A stretch of 64,000 bases of DNA from positions 14,756-78,755 of the forward strand of contig CAVPNQ010000161.1 in the NCBI GenBank assembly GCA_963706735.1, in the 5' to 3' direction. This document shows, piece by piece, positions 1,585 through 63,231 of this stretch (positions are counted from its first letter, which is position 1; each line of letters opens with the position of its first letter). A program made the translations under genes and the position numbers. The stretch comes from an uncultured Planctomycetia bacterium. GTDB lineage: Bacteria > Planctomycetota > MHYJ01 > WSZJ01. The notes beneath the pieces were generated by a model. It was not told the origin of the DNA, did not search any database, and was given only the letters and a program-made list of their open reading frames with translations.

Positions 1585-2322
<738 letters not shown>

Positions 2323-2323
2323 C

Positions 2324-3769
2324 ATGCGCGTCTCGGACATGTTCGCCCATTCGCTCGGCAACCTGACGCGGCAGAAGCTGCGTTCGTTCCTGACGGTGTT
2401 CGGCGTCGTCGTGGGGACCGGCGCGATCGTGCTCATGGTGTCGCTGGGGATCGGGCTGCAGTCGCAGACCATCGAGTTCTTCAACCGGGTGGACTTCCTG
2501 ACGAGCGTGCAGGTGTTTCCGCAGAAGCGGAGCACGTCGATGATGAGTTTCGGGAGGCCGGTGTCGGGCGGGGCGACGATGAAGCTCGACGACGCGGTGG
2601 TCGAGGAGTTCAAGAAGATCCCGGGCGTGCTGACGGCGTACCCGGCGATGGATTTCGGCGGCCAGCTCACGGTGGAGCGGATGGTGGACGGCAAGAAGAA
2701 GGCGTCCACGGGGAGGTTCGTGCAGTTCATCGGCATCCCGCAGGCCGCGATCCTGCCGATGTACCGCGACAAGACGCTCGCGGGGTCTTTCTGGCCCGAG
2801 GAAAACCCGGCGGAACGCGTCGCCATCGTCCCTGCGGACGTCCTCTACGACATGGGGATCGGTCCGCCGCTTCCCGGCCACCAGAAGGAAGGCGAGATCC
2901 CGGCGCTGCGCGGCGACCCGCGCTGGAACGAGATCATCGGGATGGAAGTGAAGTTCCAGTTCTCGGTCGCCGTCCAGAAGGGCGACTCGACGCCGAAGGA
3001 CGACGAGAAGAAGGACGTCGAGGACCCGCCAAAGGAGGAGGAGCCTTCCGAGGGTGAGGTCGTGACCAAGCGCATCACGCGACGCTTCCGCATCGTCGGC
3101 ATCTACGATTCCGCGGACATCGGTTTGCCGATGGCGCCGTCGGTGTTCATCCCGCTGGAGCAGGGCAAGGAGATCATGAAGCTGCGGGCCTCGCGGAACC
3201 CGAACAGCGAGTCCACGTACCGGGCGATCACGGTGAAGGTGAAGGACGCTTCGATGACGGACAAGGTGCAGCGGGACATCGACGCGCGCGGCTACGGGAC
3301 GATGACGATCCAGGACGTGGTGCAGGTGATCGGCTACGTCTTCGTCACGCTCAAGGCGGTGCTCGGCGCGGTGGCGTCGATCGGCCTTCTCGTCGCGTTC
3401 TTCGGCATCGCCAACACGATGATCATGGCGATCCTCGAGCGCACGCGCGAGATCGGGGTGATGAAGGCCCTGGGCGCGCGCAACGCCGAAATCCGGCGGC
3501 TCTTCGTGATGGAGGCCGCGGCGATCGGGGGCGTCGGCGCGCTCTTTGGCATCGGCGGCGGCTGGGCGTTCGGGAAGGGGCTGAATCTTCTGGTGGCGTG
3601 GTTCGTGGAGAAGCGCGGGGGGCCGGAGGGGGTGTACCTGTTTGTCGTCTCCCCGTGGCTGGCCGGCGGGACGCTCGCATTTGCGGTCGTAGTCGCGGTG
3701 ATTGCCGGCTTGTATCCCGCGTGGCGCGCTTCGAGGCTCGATCCCGTGGCGGCGCTGAGAAGTCTGTAG
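2324..3769 (+). CDS. ABC transporter permease, MacB-like periplasmic domain plus FtsX-type C-terminal TM bundle
   Basis: N-terminal TM, a large extracytoplasmic region, and a C-terminal GIANTMIMAILERTREIGVMKALGA FtsX motif. The ATG lies 2 nt after the ATPase stop. Confidence 0.9.
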   Translation: MRVSDMFAHSLGNLTRQKLRSFLTVFGVVVGTGAIVLMVSLGIGLQSQTIEFFNRVDFLTSVQVFPQKRSTSMMSFGRPVSGGATMKLDDAVVEEFKKIPGVLTAYPAMDFGGQLTVERMVDGKKKASTGRFVQFIGIPQAAILPMYRDKTLAGSFWPEENPAERVAIVPADVLYDMGIGPPLPGHQKEGEIPALRGDPRWNEIIGMEVKFQFSVAVQKGDSTPKDDEKKDVEDPPKEEEPSEGEVVTKRITRRFRIVGIYDSADIGLPMAPSVFIPLEQGKEIMKLRASRNPNSESTYRAITVKVKDASMTDKVQRDIDARGYGTMTIQDVVQVIGYVFVTLKAVLGAVASIGLLVAFFGIANTMIMAILERTREIGVMKALGARNAEIRRLFVMEAAAIGGVGALFGIGGGWAFGKGLNLLVAWFVEKRGGPEGVYLFVVSPWLAGGTLAFAVVVAVIAGLYPAWRASRLDPVAALRSL

Positions 3770-4599: not shown

Positions 4600-5898
4600 C
4601 TACATCACGAACGTCGCTTCCGCACCCTTCCACCACTCGTCCCACTTCGTGATGAACGGCGGCCGGTCCCCGGGCTCTCCCGGGACGCGTCCGAAATCCT
4701 GCTTCGTGAACGACTTCAGCAGGTCGTTGGCCGCGTTCGACATCGCGATGTCCTCTTCCTTCAGGGCCGCAATCAGCGCCGGGATGACGATCTTGCCGTA
4801 CTTGCGGATCTCCGCCGTCGCCTGCTCGCGCTGCTCGAACGTGCCGCGCGCGTAGTTCGAAAGGTGCTGCGGCAGGTCGCGCCGCATCGCGCCTTCGCCC
4901 GTGCCGCCGGACGGCTTCTTGATCTCCGTCACGCCCCCCGGGGGAGGCTTGGGCGGATCGGACGGCGGATTCCCGGGGTTCGGCGGAATCTCCGCCGCGC
5001 CACCGCCGCCGAACTCCGCTTCGCTCACCAGCTGCGCCGCCTGCCCCTTGGGCTCGTTCACCCACCAGTGCCGGTACTCCATGATCATCGCCGCCCGGCT
5101 TGCCGAGGATTCGAACAGGCCCTCGGGAAGCGCCGGCCCGCCCTTGACGGCGCGGTCCACGATCTCGCGGGACGCATTGGCGATGTCGGCGTCGCTCGAC
5201 CACTTCTGCACCAGGCACGGGATCAGCGCGCGGCCGTGCCGCAGCAGCTTCGACGCCGTCTTCAGGAACTGTTCGTCCACGGGGCGCGATTTCAGGATCG
5301 CGAGCGTCGCGATGACGTCCGCATCGACCGCGGGGTCGGCGTCCCAGCCCGAGTCCACCGGCGGCTTCGGCTTGTCCGGCGGCTTCTCCGTCGCCGCCGT
5401 CTCCTTCTCCGTCGCCTCGGCCGCGGCCTTCTTTGCGACCGTTGCCTTCTTCTTGTCCTCGGCGCTCGGCTGCTTGGCGATGTAGATGATGAGCCCGATG
5501 ATCGCGATCGCCACGACGCCGATCCCGCCGTACATCACCATCTTGTCGCCGCTGTTGTCCTGGACCTCAGGGGCGGGCTGGGAAGCGCGTCTGATGGCCC
5601 GCATGTCGGTGTTCGGGTCGAGGGCGCCCATGCCGACGGCCTCGTTGACGACCCGCATCTTCGACGTCCCGCCGCGGGCCGCGGGGGGACGCGAAGTGCG
5701 CCCGGTTCCGCCCCGGACGGCCCGGTGCGTGTTTCCGCGCGACGCCGCCTTGGCCGGGGCCGCCGCCGCCGCGGGGGCGCCCCCGGGGATCGTGACGATC
5801 GTGTTGCACTCGGGGCACTGGAAGCGGTCGCCCGGGTCGTAGCCGGAACCGTCGTACTCGGCCTTGCAGCCGGGGCAGTTGACCATGCCTGCACTCAT
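4600..5898 (-). CDS. Hypothetical membrane protein: N-terminal zinc ribbon, one TM, C-terminal HEAT-like repeats
   Basis: Start MSAGMVNCPGCKAEYDG...FQCPECN gives two CxxC pairs. TM is MVMYGGIGVVAIAIIGLIIYIA. The C-terminus has helical repeats. The ORF-track N-terminal extension to 6087 is Arg-rich junk. Confidence 0.6.
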   Translation of the reverse strand: MSAGMVNCPGCKAEYDGSGYDPGDRFQCPECNTIVTIPGGAPAAAAAPAKAASRGNTHRAVRGGTGRTSRPPAARGGTSKMRVVNEAVGMGALDPNTDMRAIRRASQPAPEVQDNSGDKMVMYGGIGVVAIAIIGLIIYIAKQPSAEDKKKATVAKKAAAEATEKETAATEKPPDKPKPPVDSGWDADPAVDADVIATLAILKSRPVDEQFLKTASKLLRHGRALIPCLVQKWSSDADIANASREIVDRAVKGGPALPEGLFESSASRAAMIMEYRHWWVNEPKGQAAQLVSEAEFGGGGAAEIPPNPGNPPSDPPKPPPGGVTEIKKPSGGTGEGAMRRDLPQHLSNYARGTFEQREQATAEIRKYGKIVIPALIAALKEEDIAMSNAANDLLKSFTKQDFGRVPGEPGDRPPFITKWDEWWKGAEATFVM

Positions 5899-20012: not shown

Positions 20013-20070
20013 GAGGGGCGGGATTCTAAGCGAAGAGCCCGATTCTCTTCCCTACTTCTGGCCCTATTGC

Positions 20071-20262
20071 GTGGGGGCCGGGAGGGGAAACGGCAAAGGC
20101 AAAACGGAGAACCCTCAAGCAAACGACAAAAGGCAAACGACAAGTCGGGCAGTGCGTCGAGTGGTTGCCGGGTGGCATCATCCGGGAATTGTGTTCTCTG
20201 TTTTGCTTTTGGCGTTTGGTTTGCGTTTCGCAGTTTTGAGTTTGCCTTTTCGCGGCCATGGC
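20071..20262. repeat. Palindromic intergenic element A1 (A family, + orientation)
   Basis: gggaggggaaacggcaaaggcaaaacggagaaccctcaagcaaacgacaaaaggcaaacgacaag / core caagtcgggcagtgcgtcgagtggttgccggg (20141-20172) / gttctctgttttgcttttggcgtttggtttgcgtttcgcagttttgagtttgccttttcgcgg. Confidence 0.9.
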
Positions 20263-27469: not shown

Positions 27470-27649
27470 GTGCATGGCCGCGAAAAGGCAAACTCAAAAC
27501 TGCGAAACGCAAACCAAACGCCAAAAGCAAAACGGAGAAGACAATTCACGGACGCAAGCCAATCGTCGACCTGCCTGACTTGTCGTTTGCAGTTTGTCGT
27601 TTGCTTGAGGGTTCTCCTTTTTGCGTTTGCCCTTTCCCTCCCGTCCACC
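27470..27649. repeat. Palindromic intergenic element A2 (A family, reverse orientation)
   Basis: Reverse complement aligns end to end with A1 and A3. The outer arms are near-identical, e.g. cgaaaaggcaaactcaaaactgcgaaacgcaaaccaaacgccaaaagcaaaac. The core lies at 27549-27582. Confidence 0.9.
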
Positions 27650-27739
27650 CCGCACTCCCAGCCCGCACCCCCTTGGGCGAACCACCTTGTTCCTCCCCCC
27701 CCGCGCGGCTAGAATCGCCCCTCCAAGGAGAGGATCGCC

Positions 27740-30150: not shown

Positions 30151-30309
30151 GGCGAAGGCAAACGACAAGGAACCAACCTCCAAAGGACAAGGAAACGGCA
30201 AAGGCCAAAGGGAAAATTTCCAAGCCGGCGCGGAATCCGGATTGGCGTTCGGCGTTTTTCCCTTTGGCGTTTACTTGTCGTTTGGAATGTTGGAAGTTGT
30301 CGTTTCCGG
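30151..30309. repeat. Palindromic intergenic element B2
   Basis: ggcgaaggcaaacgacaaggaaccaacctccaaaggacaaggaaacggcaaaggccaaaggg... pairs with ...ccctttggcgtttacttgtcgtttggaatgttggaagttgtcgtttccgg. It shares the first ~25 nt with B1. Confidence 0.85.
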
Positions 30310-45087: not shown

Positions 45088-45174
45088 GTGAGTCTCCCCT
45101 GAATGATGCATATATATTTACCATATAAACGCCCATATTGTGTCATCCATTTGATAATAAAATGAGGCGATATA

Positions 45175-45203
45175 TTGACAACAAGGCTAGTCCATCCGAT
45201 ACT
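45175..45203 (+). promoter_or_regulatory. Sigma70-like promoter TTGACA-N17-GATACT for the MerR/B12 regulator; probably a leaderless mRNA
   Basis: ttgaca at 45175-45180 and gatact at 45198-45203. The ATG at 45211 is only 7 nt past the -10 box and has no SD. Confidence 0.45.
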
Positions 45204-45210
45204 TCCCTTC

Positions 45211-46086
45211 ATGACCACCCCCGCCGCCGTCCGCCTTCGCATCGGTGCCGTCGCCCGATCTTCCGGCGTCTCCCCTCACACCATCCGCTCCTGGGAGCGC
45301 CGCCACCACGCCCTCGCCCCCGCTCGCTCCGACGCCGGCGGCCGCCTCTATTCCGAAGCCGACGTCCAGCGCCTTCTGCTCCTCCGCCGCGCCGTCGACG
45401 CCGGCCACTCCATCGGCTCCATCGCCCATCTCCCCGACCCCGATCTCGCACGCCTCGGCCGCTCTTCCGCGCCCGACCCTGCCCGCGACCTCTGCAATCG
45501 CTTCCTCGAGGCCGTCAGCCGCTTCGATCCCGAATCCGCCGAGCGCGAACTCAACCGCGCCGCGGCGCTCTTCCCCCAGGACCGCCTCGTCCGCGAAATC
45601 CTCGCCCCGCTTCTCCGCGACATCGGCGAGCGCTGGGCCCATTCCGAAATCGGCGTCGCGCAGGAACACCTCGCCACCAGCCTCATCCGCGCCCTCCTCG
45701 TCACCCTCATCCGCCTGCAGCCTCCACCGGCCGGCGGCCGGCCGATCGTCTTCGCCACCCTCGAGGGCGAACGCCACGAAATGGGCCTTCTCCTCGCCGC
45801 CTTTCTCGCCGCCGCCCGCCGCCGCCGCGTCGTTTACCTCGGCACCGAAGTCCCCGCCGCCGACCTCGCCCACGCCGCACGCACCTGCAACGCCGCCGCC
45901 ATCGCCCTCAGCCTCGTCTCCGCCAACGACGCTACCGATGCCCTCGACCTCCTCGCGGCTCTCGCCCCCGGCGATACCGCGGTCTGGCTGGGCGGAAGCG
46001 CCGCCCAGTCCCACTCCGACGTCGCCGCTTCTCGCGGATGGAAGGTCCTCTCCGGCACCGACGACCTCGACGCGCTTCTCGCTTAG
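45211..46086 (+). CDS. MerR-family regulator with C-terminal cobalamin-binding domain (CarH/LitR type)
   Basis: MerR HTH LRIGAVARSSGVSPHTIRSWERR. The B12-binding Rossmann region has the E-x-H-x-x-G motif (LEGERHEMGLLL). Divergent from the photolyase operon. Confidence 0.85.
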   Translation: MTTPAAVRLRIGAVARSSGVSPHTIRSWERRHHALAPARSDAGGRLYSEADVQRLLLLRRAVDAGHSIGSIAHLPDPDLARLGRSSAPDPARDLCNRFLEAVSRFDPESAERELNRAAALFPQDRLVREILAPLLRDIGERWAHSEIGVAQEHLATSLIRALLVTLIRLQPPPAGGRPIVFATLEGERHEMGLLLAAFLAAARRRRVVYLGTEVPAADLAHAARTCNAAAIALSLVSANDATDALDLLAALAPGDTAVWLGGSAAQSHSDVAASRGWKVLSGTDDLDALLA

Positions 46087-46121
46087 CCCGCCGCGTCGGC
46101 GCGGATAGCATCCTTCCCGCG

Positions 46122-46376
46122 ATGCTCCTCCACGCCTCCGTCCTCGACCTCTTCGGCCGCACCCCCCTCGTGCGCCTCTCCCGCGTCGCCGCGGATGTCC
46201 CGGCGCTTCTGTACGGCAAACTCGAGATGCTCAATCCCGGCGGCAGCGTGAAGGACCGGATCGGGCTGGCGATGGTGGAAGCGGCGGAGCGGGACGGGCG
46301 GTTGAAGGCGGGGGCGACGATCGTGGAAGCAACGGCGGGGAACACGGGGGTGGCCGCGCCGGACCGCGGCGCTTGA
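46122..46376 (+). pseudogene. Truncated cysteine synthase/CBS-family (PLP fold type II) N-terminal fragment
   Basis: LFGRTPLVRLSRV...LEMLNPGGSVKDRIG...TIVEATAGNTGV, then an abrupt stop after 84 codons. A short AT-richer junction follows. Confidence 0.6.
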
Positions 46377-46482
46377 AGCGGTATAGGGATTCCACCCCCC
46401 GAAATTCAAACTTCCTTAACAATCAGCCGCTAGAATCCCCCCCCTTCGCCGGGGAACGCTCCCGGCCAGAGAGGGGAAGGCC

Positions 46483-48575: not shown

Positions 48576-48633
48576 AGATTGGACGAAAGACGGCAGACAC
48601 GGCGGCGGGTACAGGTCTTGTGATTGGCGTTTG

Positions 48634-48691
48634 TTCGGGCCCCGAAAGGGCAAACTCAAAACGGCGAAACACAAAGCGAAACGCCAAAAGC
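48634..48691. repeat. A-family element A4, left half (interrupted copy, reverse orientation)
   Basis: ccccgaaagggcaaactcaaaacggcgaaacacaaagcgaaacgccaaaagc aligns with the first ~55 nt of A2, then similarity stops abruptly. Confidence 0.85.
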
Positions 48692-50394
48692 TAACGCGGC
48701 CTGTGGCCGCAACCAAATGAGCTGGTTCTCAATAGACACGGCGTTTCTTCCCTTGTAGGAATGCGGTTGCGAAGCGTCATTCCTGCGCAATCGGAGAGAA
48801 ACGCCGTGAATCTCTTTATATCAAAGCATGGCCGTGACGTCACCGGAGTGCTGTCAGGTTTCGACCGGATGCTTTTTTTCGCGACGATCCGGGCCATCTC
48901 GTTCGCCGGGGGGATGGCTGCTTTGCTGAAGAGGATGGGCGTGGCCCTGCAGGGCTTTGGAGAGTTCGTCGAGGACTGTACTGAGCGCCTGCTCAGGTCA
49001 ACGTTGGCTCTTCCGATCTCGCGAGGGCGGCCGAGTCTGTTCCTCCGCGGCAACGATGTCCGAAAGAATGAGTATGCCGAGGAGATCGCGCATCGCGACA
49101 AGATCCGCGACGGGCTGATCTGCACCTTCCGCGCTGTGGAGCCCTGCAAGACCTTCCGCGTTCGCAAGCACGGGAAGAATAGCCTGAAGGTGACCTACGA
49201 GCGCACCAAGTGCATCCACGTGTACCACTACTTCATGGACCCCGTGTTCGGGTTCATGCACGCGCGGCTGCAGAGCTGGTTTCCGTTCAGCATCCAGATC
49301 TGCATCAACGGCAGAGAGTGGCTGTCGCGCCAGATGGATGGAGCCGGTTTGACTTACACGAAGCGGGAGAATTGCTTCCTTCAGATCGAAGACTGGAAGC
49401 GCGCACAGGACCTTGCGACTGAGCAACTCCGGACGCCCTGGACGCAACAGTTGTCCCGGATCGTCCGGGTGGTGGCTTCTGCGGTCCCGGGAATCCTCGG
49501 CGTCAGGGGCTGCGACTACTACTACACGCTCCGGCAGAGCGAGTGGGCCACCGATGTTCTCTTCAAAGACACGGCAGTCCTGGATCGATTGATGCCGTCT
49601 CTGACCCGTCACTCGATCCTCTCCCTGGGCTGCGACAACGTGATGCGGTTCCTGGGGACGAGCAAACCGAATGGGAATCTTCGGCGGTCCGTAAAAAGCT
49701 ACCTCAGGAGCGAGCGCCGGGAAGGCCTGCGCGTCAAACACTGGTTCGGGCACAACTCCATCAAGCTCTACCAGAAACACGGGACCGTCCTGCGCGCCGA
49801 GACGACGATCAACCAGGCCGGTGAATTCACCGTGCTGCGCCCCAAGGACGGAGATCCGAAAGGCGAGTGCAGGCGCCGTGTCATGCGCCAGGGGATTGCG
49901 GATCTCTACCGGCGCTCACAGGTTTCTGACCGCGCTAACAAAAACTACCTCGATGCCATCAGCGCCGCCGACACATCGGCCGCCCTGGGAGATGTCTTCC
50001 AGCGCGTCATCACACCTGTCGAGCAGGGCGGAAAGCGATCAAGAGGACTGCGGCCTTGGTCGCCGGACGATCTCAAGCTCTTCAAGTTCATCATGGACGG
50101 GAAGTTCCATCTCAGAGGCTTCAGGAACTTCGACCTTCGGAAGGTGCTCTTCCCGATACCAACTCATGACCCGGTTGAACGCAGAAAACGATCGGCAAAG
50201 GCCAGCAGGCTCCTGCGCCTGCTCAGGGCTCACGGACTGATAAAAAAACTGCCCCTATCCCGCTCGTACAGGGTCACCAAAGGCGGTCGTGAGACTCTCG
50301 CTACGATACTGGTGGCGCAAGGTCTTACGCTCGATGCGATGAAAGCAAGCGCATAACATCGTCGCGAAAAACGAAGATCCTCGGGGTTATAAGT
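48692..50394 (+). mobile_element. ~1.7 kb insertion splitting repeat A4; carries one unrecognised ORF; no terminal inverted repeats and no clear target duplication
   Basis: Joining 48691 to 50395 restores an A-family element colinear with A2. The insert is visibly more AT-rich than its flanks. There is a 6-bp stem hairpin gcggcc-tgt-ggccgc at 48696-48710 near the left end. Confidence 0.6.
48761..50356 (+). CDS. Hypothetical 531-aa protein with C-terminal winged-helix-like segment (candidate transposase/recombinase of unknown family)
   Basis: Long ORF with regular coding appearance and no motif I can assign. The C-terminus RLLRLLRAHGLIKKLPLSRSYRVTKGGRETL looks like a wHTH. The better start may be GTG 48806, preceded by ggagag. 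Confidence 0.75.
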   Translation: MRLRSVIPAQSERNAVNLFISKHGRDVTGVLSGFDRMLFFATIRAISFAGGMAALLKRMGVALQGFGEFVEDCTERLLRSTLALPISRGRPSLFLRGNDVRKNEYAEEIAHRDKIRDGLICTFRAVEPCKTFRVRKHGKNSLKVTYERTKCIHVYHYFMDPVFGFMHARLQSWFPFSIQICINGREWLSRQMDGAGLTYTKRENCFLQIEDWKRAQDLATEQLRTPWTQQLSRIVRVVASAVPGILGVRGCDYYYTLRQSEWATDVLFKDTAVLDRLMPSLTRHSILSLGCDNVMRFLGTSKPNGNLRRSVKSYLRSERREGLRVKHWFGHNSIKLYQKHGTVLRAETTINQAGEFTVLRPKDGDPKGECRRRVMRQGIADLYRRSQVSDRANKNYLDAISAADTSAALGDVFQRVITPVEQGGKRSRGLRPWSPDDLKLFKFIMDGKFHLRGFRNFDLRKVLFPIPTHDPVERRKRSAKASRLLRLLRAHGLIKKLPLSRSYRVTKGGRETLATILVAQGLTLDAMKASA

Positions 50395-50513
50395 CAAAAG
50401 GGAGAAAAACGGGCCCTCGCCGCATCGACGAAGCTGCCTGACTTGTCGTTTGCCTCTTGCCGTTTCATTGAGAGTTCTCCGTTTTGCCTTTGCCGTTTCC
50501 CCTCCCGACCACC
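50395..50513. repeat. A-family element A4, right half
   Basis: caaaagggagaaaaacggg...catcgacgaagctgcctgacttgtcgtttgcctcttgccgtttcattgagagttctccgttttgcctttgccgtttcccctccc aligns with the core and right arm of A2. Confidence 0.85.
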
Positions 50514-50539
50514 CTGCAATACCGACCACGCACCCGGGG

Positions 50540-62926: not shown

Positions 62927-63036
62927 GGGAAACTCCTTGAGCGCTGCGGGGCGAAGGTGCGAGTGGCGGGACGGACTGAAAGATACTCGGTGAGGCGGGG
63001 AGGACAAGGGTTTCCGGGGGGATGGAGGCCCTGGGA

Positions 63037-63231
63037 GGGTGGCCGGGAGGGGAAACGGCAAACGCAAAAGGGAGAACCCTCAAGCAAACGACAAAGGGCA
63101 AACGACAAGACAGGCAGTTCGTCGAATGGCTTGCCGGGTGGCGTCAGCCGTGAATTTTGTTCTCTGTTTTGCCTTTGGCGTTTGGTTTTGCGTTTCGCGG
63201 TTTTGAGTTTGCCTTTTCGAGCCCACGCACC
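63037..63231. repeat. Palindromic intergenic element A3 (A family, + orientation)
   Basis: Colinear with A1 over its whole length. The core caagacaggcagttcgtcgaatggcttgccggg lies at 63106-63138. Confidence 0.9.

Follow-up and report, generated by a model that had tools for sequence, protein, structure and literature searches.

The window analysed here, a stretch of 64,000 nucleotides from an uncultured Planctomycetia bacterium, contains A-type repeats of about 190 nt, one of which is interrupted by a 1.7-kb segment with a single gene (Table 1). The sequence-only reading of this DNA had described the segment as an AT-richer insertion that splits the repeat precisely, and both points are borne out. 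The GC fraction is 0.55-0.62 within the insert and 0.65-0.72 in its flanks; when the flanks (48600-48691 and 50395-50530) are joined, they align colinearly across the junction with three intact A copies at 78-80% identity (E = 1e-36 to 1e-39). A second copy from another sample, L083, provides independent proof of the boundaries, in that the element is identical (0 differences over 48692-50394, 1,703 bp) whereas the flanks have diverged: the 77 nt next to the element on the left contain 13 differences (83% identity, 17% divergence), and the mismatches nearest the element lie at 48690 on the left and at 50400 on the right. Because a C is present at both junctions, the boundary is defined to within 1 nt; the register 48691-50394 (CTAA-CGCGGCC...GGTTATAAGT) was set by the consensus ends of the family. 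As had been noted from the letters, there are no terminal inverted repeats (TIRs) at the element ends and no target duplication (TSD) beyond the one ambiguous C.

Table 1. Features of the element, of the repeat that it splits and of intact A repeats in the window.
Feature	Position	Strand	Remarks
Intact A repeat, paralogous empty site	20065..20257	-	unoccupied units 20196-20211 (-) and 20094-20109 (+)
Intact A repeat, paralogous empty site	27476..27654	+	unoccupied target units 27522-27537 (+) and 27614-27629 (-)
Left part of split A-type repeat (target DNA)	48634..48690	+	ends ...GCCAAAAG; aligns to intact A copies
Insertion sequence	48691..50394	+	1,704 bp, +/-1 nt; 0 differences from copies in other samples, diverged flanks, lower GC
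Left-end tip CTAA	48691..48694	+	family consensus ACAG; similar to CAAA, with which the right flank starts
Left-end hairpin GCGGCC-TGT-GGCCGC	48696..48710	+	4-5 nt from the left end; folds as centroid structure
Left-end motif GCCGCAACCAAA	48706..48717	+	family-wide; only exact copy in the window
TAGACA-17 nt-TAGGAA(T) stretch	48733..48761	+	conserved; possible promoter of the gene
Candidate transposase gene	48806..50356	+	516 aa (531 aa if started at ATG 48761); predicted TBP-like double domain and C-terminal winged helix
Right end	50357..50394	+	imperfect inverted repeat ATCGTCGCG...CGAAGAT, then GGTTATAAGT (family consensus GGTTAGTAGT)
Rest of split A-type repeat (target DNA)	50395..50513	+	starts CAAAAGGGAGAA; aligns to intact A copies
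Intact A repeat, paralogous empty site	63036..63219	-	unoccupied units 63162-63177 (-) and 63059-63074 (+)

The ends of the element are asymmetric, the left one reading (C)ACAG-CGCGGC-loop-GCCGCAACCAAA throughout the family and the right one GGTTAGTAGT. The tip was assigned from a family table of tips and right flanks together with the reconstruction of a Thermoguttaceae paralogue; the right end was taken from an alignment of family right ends, and the identity with L083 continues up to the flank. The hairpin that had been placed 5 nt from the left end is confirmed with its distance corrected to 4-5 nt; its stem is kept across the family through compensatory changes, and the loops vary. On folding, the right-end hairpin is weak, and an Rfam search of the element gave no match. 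With up to two mismatches, GCCGCAACCAAA is found on the + strand of 75 of the 81 loci, exactly in most of them and typically 60-130 nt upstream of the ORF; it is the probable binding site of the transposase. Many family members also have TTGACAnGGCGTTyC...CGTAGGAT conserved at the corresponding place; since a strict sigma-70 scan called no promoter at the TAGACA/TAGGAA stretch of the window, we regard this stretch only as a possible promoter for the transposase gene. The ORF itself spans 48761-50356. Two starts had been offered for it, and the downstream one is favoured: homologues begin at the residue for which GTG 48806 codes, a codon preceded by GGAG, so that the product is probably of 516 aa.

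The segment 48691-50394 is a discrete, autonomous and recently active insertion sequence (IS) of a very large, unnamed bacterial family. The element is identical in L083, L084, L085 and L087, all with diverged flanks; besides the repeat split in the window, five or more diverged A-type repeats from several other samples have it at the same point, and at least six distinct A-type repeat contexts in all carry it at one position of the A unit. Samples with exactly this element include SRR22000196, SRR12846151 and SRR23782930. A Thermoguttaceae MAG holds seven copies that are 99.7-100% identical to one another and to the reference copy and lie in unrelated flanks, and the family gene is multicopy in other long-read MAGs too; OZ240210.1 exemplifies closed genomes rich in copies, and one homologue is that of pOLGA1 from the cultivable Paraburkholderia phytofirmans OLGA172. 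The family comprises 12,092 clusters at 50% identity (E <= 1e-3) from many phyla, and the element, with the gene as its sole cargo, is spread over at least seven phyla; thousands of relatives lie on element-sized contigs, and gene-less miniature derivatives (MITEs) of ~240 bp at Marinacidobacterales loci keep both signature ends. The identical copies in at least six repeat contexts, the multicopy genomes and the element-sized contigs support the earlier proposal of a novel mobile element. There is next to no probability that this is a vertically inherited, non-mobile gene lying in the repeat by chance: the single copy in the window would suit it, but identical copies follow different genes and lie in differing repeat contexts, other genomes have several copies of the family, and the GC content lies about 10 points below that of the host. 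The exact left end of the window element had no match among species-representative genomes. An empty allele of the window locus, sought via the exact proteins of both neighbouring genes, was not recovered, as unitigs break inside the repeat, and no circle junction of the element was recovered either. No description of the element was found in the literature on its end sequences, CACAGAG arrays, TBP-fold transposases or new IS families.

Insertion is orientation-specific and falls in the purine-rich arms of palindromic repeats, directly 5' of a tetranucleotide that resembles the first four bases of the element; eight unoccupied target units are present in the window. On the gene strand the flanks of family elements are rich in purines (p ~1e-6), and members in other phyla likewise lie in the arms of palindromic host repeats. 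These repeats and the shared position within the A unit support the first of two options raised previously, a TSD-less element that targets structured repeats. Reconstruction of the insertion site from paralogues gives C|ACA(A/G) and no TSD; downstream of ...GTAGT, the conserved ACA is followed by A or G among near-identical copies, and in L025 a right end adjoins a left end via a single ACAG. How closely the left tip resembles the target depends on the lineage: the likeness is strong in some (ACAG, ACGG, CTAA/CAAA) and loose in others, for instance where CCTAG tips are combined with ACAG flanks. Other assignments of the junction bases were considered. A model that assigns the 5-mer preceding the hairpin (CACAG/CCCAG) to the target, like TTAC for IS608, was rejected because paralogous sites lack the 5-mer; the assignment of the ACA(G) after ...GTAGT to the element is disfavoured by the paralogue reconstruction and by the A/G variation in near-identical copies; a 4-bp TSD does not fit a left tip that stays constant beside a varying right flank and was rejected on that ground.

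The second option had been that the element is the full-length form of which the A repeats are internally deleted derivatives, and we reject it as very improbable. The A repeats are indeed short, repeated and palindromic, and at their centre a small hairpin followed by GCAA(C/G)CCA faintly recalls GCCGCAACCAAA. However, they have neither the left-end hairpin with GCCGCAACCAAA nor the right-end motif GGTTAGTAGT, whereas the genuine MITEs of the family retain both ends; the element interrupts an A repeat internally and its removal restores colinearity, and window and L083 agree fully in the element but only to 83% in the repeat around it.

The protein had no match in Pfam, NCBIfam, PHROGs, PADLOC or PDB sequences in single-sequence and profile searches, so that the HMM search proposed earlier assigned it to no Pfam or NCBIfam family, and no Pfam or NCBIfam transposase model matched any of 35 family members. 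The C-terminal winged helix suspected from the translation draws weak support from weak matches of homologues to Pfam HTH_45 and HVO_A0261_N and from MarR/PhoB-like Foldseek matches. Two AlphaFold2 models (pLDDT 85 and 89.5, pTM 0.76 and 0.89) predict a beta-alpha-beta4-alpha topology that occurs twice, and the modelled fold is a TBP-like double domain with a winged helix. The best Foldseek matches are TATA-binding proteins (TBPs), with E = 2e-4 and a probability of 0.99 in BFVD and a probability of 0.87 and a TM-score of 0.49 for 1tbp_A, the TM-scores to TBPs being low overall (0.2-0.5). No RNase H-like, RuvC or HUH/RRM fold appears in the models or among the Foldseek matches, and when full-length and core-only models were compared with the PDB the Rep_trans structures 4CIJ, 4CWC and 4CWE were absent from the top 50. 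Among 65 diverse members only 15 residues are invariant, namely D35, R36, E127, Y155, Y157, E261, D265, Y337, R345 and E347 and five structural Gly, Pro or Asn residues; no His is invariant, and the protein is therefore not of the HUH type. The HMM searches and the inspection of invariant residues thus agree with the initial impression that DDE, DEDD, HUH, RT and TnpB signatures are lacking.

We infer that this single protein is the putative transposase of the element. Its likely enzymology, judged from the structural models, is that of a Rep_trans-like tyrosine nuclease with a TBP-like fold, a link that we draw solely from the fold class and the inspection of motifs and that no statistical test supports. 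The Rep_trans fold is TBP-like, and Rep-Arvir proteins show similar search behaviour and architecture (PMC13107129); the Rep_trans motifs consist of an N-terminal D, RxD, YxK on a beta-strand and RxE (PMC5714925). In the element protein K335-L-Y337-D-K339 lies on a beta-strand and, with L-R345-x-E347, E261-W-A-T-D265 and D35, follows by inspection the order of the Rep_trans motifs, the comparison being anchored on 4CIJ, 4CWC and 4CWE; the 15 invariant residues appear to parallel the active-site motifs of Rep_trans and Rep-Arvir. We propose that the protein would act as a metal-dependent tyrosine nuclease with a TBP-like double domain and a C-terminal winged helix, in which the active site may be formed by Y337 of the K-L-Y-D-K strand together with D35, E261/D265 and R345-x-E347. 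One strand would be nicked at N|ACAG-type sites beside the left-end hairpin and where the right end meets the target, the choice of strand and the exact cleavage positions being suggested by junction sequences only; the 5' phosphate would then be joined to the enzyme, and the single strand would be moved into an equivalent site by a rolling-circle or peel-and-paste route. Such nicking and movement of a single strand would explain the absent TIRs and TSDs as well as the likeness between left tip and target. As a whole, an active IS with a strand-moving transposase that is a Rep_trans/Rep-Arvir-like TBP-fold tyrosine nuclease is the reading to which we incline, at somewhat better than an even chance. 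According to a 2017 review (PMC5714925), replication and conjugation are the known roles of Rep_trans enzymes, and transposition is not among them; we would place at a little under even the further claim that this is the first recognised transposon family with a TBP-fold (Rep_trans/Rep-Arvir) tyrosine nuclease as transposase and a non-HUH single-strand route.

The element may instead be a real IS with a real transposase in which the TBP-like scaffold serves some nuclease or recombinase chemistry other than that of Rep_trans; the likeness would then be convergent, or no 5'-phosphotyrosine would be formed, for example in double-strand site-specific recombination via a short core. We consider this rather unlikely. 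No sequence-profile link to Rep_trans or DUF7845 was detected: hhalign gave the family a probability of 0.2-0.4% against a verified Rep_trans alignment and of 0.4%, over the winged helix-turn-helix (wHTH) only, against a PAV1/HHPV3 (DUF7845) alignment, and local motif windows, picked with the motifs in mind, paired with Rep_trans as expected at non-significant E values of 0.012 and 0.25. The solved Rep_trans structures were not retrieved by Foldseek, the invariant Y155/Y157 pair and E127 have no Rep_trans counterpart, and the likeness of ACAG-type left tips to the target also fits core-based site-specific recombination. On the other hand, the cores of the four motifs are invariant residues on beta-strands in an order matching Rep_trans, the domain architecture equals that of Rep-Arvir, insertion is strand-specific, and the asymmetric, hairpin-dependent ends are usual for single-strand nucleases.

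DNA binding is the classic role of TBP and winged-helix domains, one homologue is annotated as an ArsR regulator and no catalytic fold was matched significantly by Foldseek, all of which would suit a protein that merely binds DNA through a TBP-like saddle and a winged helix, the mover being another enzyme, of the host or encoded separately, for instance a replication initiator, a Xer-type recombinase or a transposase acting in trans. This is improbable in our estimate: this gene is the sole cargo of an element found in at least seven phyla, the MITEs depend on the same ends, a pure binder would not need invariant Tyr, Asp and Glu on beta-strands, and the PAV1 homologue of Rep-Arvir was likewise annotated as a transcriptional regulator because of its wHTH. 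Still less credit is due to a known transposase chemistry (DDE/RNase H, DEDD, HUH, serine or tyrosine recombinase) that has diverged past recognition; the anatomy, with its hairpin, repeat targeting and lack of TIR and TSD, is like that of IS200/IS605, IS91 and IS110/IS1111, but the 35 members tested match no transposase model, the confident structural model has neither RNase H-like nor HUH/RRM topology and Foldseek finds none, and the absence of an invariant His speaks against HUH.

To our knowledge only a handful of catalytic classes are known among prokaryotic transposases (DDE, DEDD, HUH Y1/Y2, serine, tyrosine and Cas1). The sole protein of the element fits none of them and resembles most the non-HUH class of rolling-circle initiators, in a family that is abundant, sharply defined and, from its identical copies, MITEs and strict ends, evidently active. 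If the Rep_trans-like reading is right, a new catalytic class of prokaryotic transposase would be added, one that has so far passed for a 'hypothetical protein' in over 12,000 protein clusters from most phyla of soil and sediment, and Rep_trans-type replicons and relaxases would be linked to transposons as HUH Reps are to IS91 and Helitrons. It would also supply a model for annotating tens of thousands of unnamed genes that fragment metagenome assemblies. The strict, orientation-specific and duplication-free insertion at a short sequence makes the element a candidate tool for programmable single-strand DNA insertion, and the element offers a way into why palindromic repeat families attract mobile elements.

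Compared with known systems, the element lacks the attributes of DDE insertion sequences: it has no transposase HMM match, no RNase H-like fold, no TIRs and no TSD. With IS110/IS1111 it shares the absence of TSDs and classic TIRs and the site-specific insertion into repeated palindromes, but it has no DEDD/RuvC-like domain or fold and no corresponding Pfam or NCBIfam match, and its non-coding ends, without an Rfam match, are too short and promoter-like for a bridge RNA. Like IS200/IS605 elements, it has no TIR or TSD, carries a subterminal hairpin, gives rise to MITEs and inserts in a strand- and orientation-specific manner beside a fixed short sequence, with an affinity for repeats that are palindromic (REP-like). 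The differences are that there is no strong hairpin at the right end, that the conserved tetranucleotide is found on the 3' side of the element when read in gene orientation, and that the protein, about 3.5 times larger, has an unrelated fold, its proposed Tyr being on a beta-strand and not on a helix; there is no Y1_Tnp match in Pfam or NCBIfam and no invariant His in the 65 members. IS91/ISCR and Helitrons resemble it in the absence of TIR and TSD, in asymmetric ends with a hairpin at one of them, in single-gene units of ~1.7 kb and in insertion beside a specific tetranucleotide mimicked by the element terminus; they differ in that the element protein is not an HUH Y2 enzyme (no Pfam or NCBIfam IS91 or Y2_Tnp match, no invariant His) and in that its target is ACAG-like in a purine-rich context.

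Rep_trans (PF02486) covers rolling-circle initiators and MOBT relaxases, among them pT181 RepC, pC221 RepD, CTXphi RstA, Tn916 Orf20 and ICEBs1 NicK. The likeness, as predicted from the models and read from the motifs by inspection, would lie in a TBP-like catalytic core, a Tyr on a beta-strand in [RK]-x-Y-x-K followed by R-x-E, a conserved N-terminal Asp, an acidic residue on strand one of the second repeat and, as proposed here for the element, action at a hairpin-associated nick site. In contrast, the element protein has no detectable sequence or profile similarity to Rep_trans (no PF02486 match in the protein and 35 homologues), its core is about 100 aa larger with the additional invariant Y155/Y157/E127, and it resides in a 1.7-kb chromosomal multicopy IS and not in a plasmid, phage or ICE. 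Rep-Arvir (DUF7845, PF25227), from archaeal viruses and plasmids (PMC13107129), differs in that the element family is bacterial and carried by an IS rather than a replicon, with no Pfam DUF7845 match in the protein or its homologues and the hhalign probability of 0.4% given above. Its architecture, an N-terminal TBP-like domain followed by a wHTH in about 530 aa, is nevertheless that of the element protein, and the two share the K-x-Y ... x-E pattern, a proneness to annotation as transcriptional regulators and Foldseek results confined to the wHTH in the PDB and to giant-virus TBPs in BFVD, including the entry A0A2N9QVX7.

The ~1.7-kb insert that splits one of the ~190-nt A repeats is a genuine insertion sequence (IS) with recent activity, and it belongs to a very large unnamed family. 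What had been noticed from the sequence alone is confirmed: the insert holds a single gene, its GC content is 0.55-0.62 against 0.65-0.72 on both sides, it carries a 6-bp hairpin, and the flanks joined after removal of 48692-50394 are colinear across the junction with the three uninterrupted repeat copies (identity 78-80%, E = 1e-36 to 1e-39). The interrupted repeat is intergenic, since it lies among ordinary chromosomal genes, which encode PPK2, a beta-helix protein, a membrane protein with DUF805 and an EEP-family enzyme. At 45138-46400, several long overlapping ORFs on both strands (72-73% GC; GC skew -0.3 to -0.37) are probably one real gene with high-GC shadow ORFs.

Features of the element, the A repeats and the miniature derivatives (window positions unless a locus is named)
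Feature	Position	Strand	Remark
ORF	48761-50356	+	sole gene of insert
Hairpin GCGGCC-TGT-GGCCGC	48696-48710		6-bp stem
Element in family register	48691-50394		tip CTAA, right flank CAAA
Interrupted A repeat	48634-48690 + 50395-50513		
Intact A repeat	20065-20257	-	
Intact A repeat	27476-27654	+	
Intact A repeat	63036-63219	-	
~240-bp MITE	L019 ~1916-2153		
~240-bp MITE	L019 ~2763-3000		
~240-bp MITE	L008 ~4611-4848		
~240-bp MITEs	L014 and L019	-	

Copies elsewhere show the insert to be a discrete unit that moved recently. The 90% cluster of the protein includes members from other assemblies, and L083, a contig from another sequencing run with a different upstream gene, shows 0 differences from the window across 48692-50394 and 13 in the 77 nt directly left of the element, the nearest mismatches falling at 48690 and 50400. 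The element recurs, with 0-1 differences, in seven more unitigs assembled from other runs. Several of these measure 1,693-1,713 bp, nearly exactly its length, as expected of a multicopy sequence that interrupts the assembly graph at its own ends. In at least six different flank contexts (the window, L083, L084, L085, L086 and L087) the junctions read ...CAAA(A/G)(G/T)C|TAACG...TAAGT|CAAAA(G/A/C)GGAG, and therefore one position of a conserved unit was entered in several diverged A-type repeats. The species-representative genome set has no match to the exact element, and no empty allele of this very locus was recovered, as the contigs at hand end within the repeat. The arrangement of repeat arms around the identical element differs from the window in the right flank of L083 and the left flank of L084; L083 has left-arm sequence on the left and inverted-right-arm-like sequence on the right, which suggests that the repeat has structural variants or that element copies have recombined.

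Among the candidates scored, the protein has more than 3,300 relatives; the best 120 listed are 43-49% identical, mostly ~515 aa long, lie in nearly every case on contigs of 1.7-2.5 kb and, where a source name is given, are called "hypothetical protein". In an exhaustive profile search, the clusters (50% identity) number 12,092 with a cutoff of E <= 1e-3 and 1,977 with a cutoff of E <= 1e-30. In one-genome-per-species contigs, 550 loci with a relative span Acidobacteriota, Planctomycetota, Alpha-, Delta- and Gammaproteobacteria, Spirochaetota, Chloroflexota, Elusimicrobiota and Verrucomicrobiota. The copy counts proposed as a check show several copies per genome in long-read MAGs, and in one Thermoguttaceae MAG a 1,710-bp unit occurs seven times, in unrelated flanks and with 99.7-100% identity to the reference copy. 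Distant relatives (21-30% identity), annotated "hypothetical protein" and once "ArsR family transcriptional regulator", reside on plasmids of cultured Paraburkholderia, Burkholderia, Caballeronia, Rhodococcus and Mycobacterium. The homologue with the latter annotation (L091; 30% identity) has a separately annotated cytochrome c gene on each side; it is on plasmid pOLGA1 of the cultured strain Paraburkholderia phytofirmans OLGA172 (NZ_CP014580.1, 252808-254322) and is possible experimental material.

The DNA ends are conserved across the family despite proteins only 40-45% identical. The left end begins with a tip of 4-5 nt (consensus (C)ACAG; also CCAG, ACGG, CTAG and CTAA), followed by CGCGGC-loop-GCCGC and AACCAAA; 75 of 81 loci have the 12-mer GCCGCAACCAAA on the + strand when <=2 mismatches are allowed, at a typical distance of 60-130 nt upstream of the gene. 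Compensatory changes maintain the stem (GCGGCC/GGCCGC, GCGGGC/GCCCGC, CCGGC/GCCGG, GCGGTGGC/GCCACCGC) around variable loops of 3 to 12 nt. Further inward, a conserved stretch, TTGACAnGGCGTTyC...CGTAGGAT, may be the promoter; it fails a strict sigma-70 scan. At the right end, the stop codon is followed by an imperfect ATCTTCGCG...CGAAGAT repeat and then GGTTAGTAGT. Neither end is an inverted repeat of the other, in line with the earlier description. Marinacidobacterales loci contain family MITEs, gene-less units of ~240 bp with exactly both family ends; there are several copies, and both orientations occur. They often stand in tandem with full copies, with ACAGAG(A/G)C alone in between. Inverted right-end remnants and inverted solo left-end hairpins also adjoin full copies (L068 ~2700-2760 and ~4640-4690; L003 ~4620-4690); the L003 stretch is a perfect palindrome of array arm, left-end hairpin and inverted array arm.

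Two explanations of the A repeats had been offered by the sequence-only reading, namely that they are targets of an element that makes no target duplication, or that they are its internally deleted derivatives. The exact left-end motif occurs just once in the window, and the right-end motif nowhere except in the element; this makes the A repeats targets, and their derivation by deletion is rejected. They are offset imperfect palindromes in which the left arm has the unit AAACG(C/G)CAAA(A/G)GCAAAAC(A/G)GAGAAC close to its centre and the right arm has it, inverted, at its outer end, which gives two potential insertion sites per copy; with a solo unit at 30199-30214, the window has eight unoccupied units. 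The whole repeat folds no better than shuffled sequence (z = -0.9). The copies at two Thermoguttaceae loci, L047 and L053, occupy different points of paralogous host repeats, so that each serves as the empty site of the other; the best reconstruction (score 37 versus 23-32 for alternatives), ungapped through both sites, gives the element as CCAG-CGCGG...GGTTAGTAGT, with insertion at C|ACA(A/G) and without any duplication. The view of a duplication-free element aimed at structured repeats proved right, given the same A-unit position in at least six contexts.

The hairpin-adjacent tip is constant among copies within a genome and thus belongs to the element. Near-identical copies differ in the bases that follow ...GTAGT: Thermoguttaceae has ACAA five times and ACAG twice, and CAWINI01 has ACGG three times and ACAG once. 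At 49 non-redundant sites, the right flank usually starts with ACAG(A/G), and in both flanks the gene strand is enriched in purines (0.60 and 0.63 versus 0.50; p = 2e-6 and 6e-7); insertion is therefore orientation-specific. At many loci the element has inserted into one arm of a long palindromic host repeat, each arm being an array of 8-10-nt units (CACAGAGR, CACGGATnAA or CACAAAGAAA), and the A repeat with its CAAAAC-type units is the local equivalent. Such palindromes in other phyla flank the element at L036, L024, L026, L068, L020-L023 and L047/L053; element activity may help to create them. In L025 a single ACAG separates a right end from another left end, and L003, L004, L008 and L058 have the arrangement right end-ACAGAGAC-left end, so left ends already in place are preferred targets themselves. 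Judging from the junctions, one N|ACAG-like sequence would be recognized on the same strand at three places: the left boundary beside the hairpin, the right end/flank junction and the target. Transposition most likely proceeds through a single strand (rolling-circle or peel-and-paste), carried out by a putative TBP-fold tyrosine nuclease. No description of such an IS or transposase was found in the searchable literature, which is not proof of absence.

As the sequence-only reading had it, the protein is unrecognized: searches of Pfam, NCBIfam, PHROGs, PADLOC and PDB sequences, by single sequence or profile, gave no match, except for weak winged-helix matches in the C-termini of some homologues. 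The confident AlphaFold2 model (35-sequence alignment; pLDDT 85, pTM 0.76; core residues 16-411 alone, 89.5 and 0.89) predicts two beta-alpha-beta4-alpha units and then the anticipated winged helix, for which Foldseek gives MarR/PhoB-like matches. Against PDB no match is significant, and the sole recurrent fold is the TATA-box binding protein (TBP; 1tbp_A, prob 0.87, TM 0.49 over the whole TBP; 1ais_A, prob 0.85). Among predicted viral structures (BFVD), giant-virus TBPs rank top (E = 2e-4, prob 0.99), together with TBP-like VETF-L or B263R proteins.

A TBP-like fold is described for the Rep_trans rolling-circle initiators (PMC13107129, 2026), whose listed roles are replication and conjugation only, rolling-circle transposition being described for HUH enzymes only (PMC5714925, 2017 review). 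Profile-profile comparisons of the IS family with Rep_trans and with DUF7845 were negative (probabilities <1%), TM-scores to TBPs are modest and solved Rep_trans structures are absent from the top 50 PDB matches, so membership in Rep_trans or Rep-Arvir is not established. Narrow-window comparisons, with windows chosen by us, paired the expected motifs, not significantly. Invariance across 65 diverse members (26-44% identity) is confined to 15 positions (D35, R36, G118, E127, Y155, Y157, G164, P175, N183, N204, E261, D265, Y337, R345 and E347), none of them His; K335 and K339 are near-invariant. The resulting cores, G-F-D35-R-L, E261-W-A-T-D265, K-L-Y337-D-K and L-R345-x-E347, all on predicted beta-strands, follow on inspection the order of the Rep_trans active-site motifs (N' Asp, RxD, T/SxY/ExG, YxKxxE with its Tyr on a beta-strand, and W/LxRxE; PMC5714925), which we anchored on solved structures with a verified Rep_trans profile. 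Rep-Arvir, an archaeal family of DUF7845 plus wHTH, was recognized by the same search pattern, wHTH only in PDB and TBPs in BFVD (PMC13107129), and BFVD entry A0A2N9QVX7 is common to both match lists. Without claiming family membership, we consider that the modelled protein probably works like the Rep_trans and Rep-Arvir nucleases.
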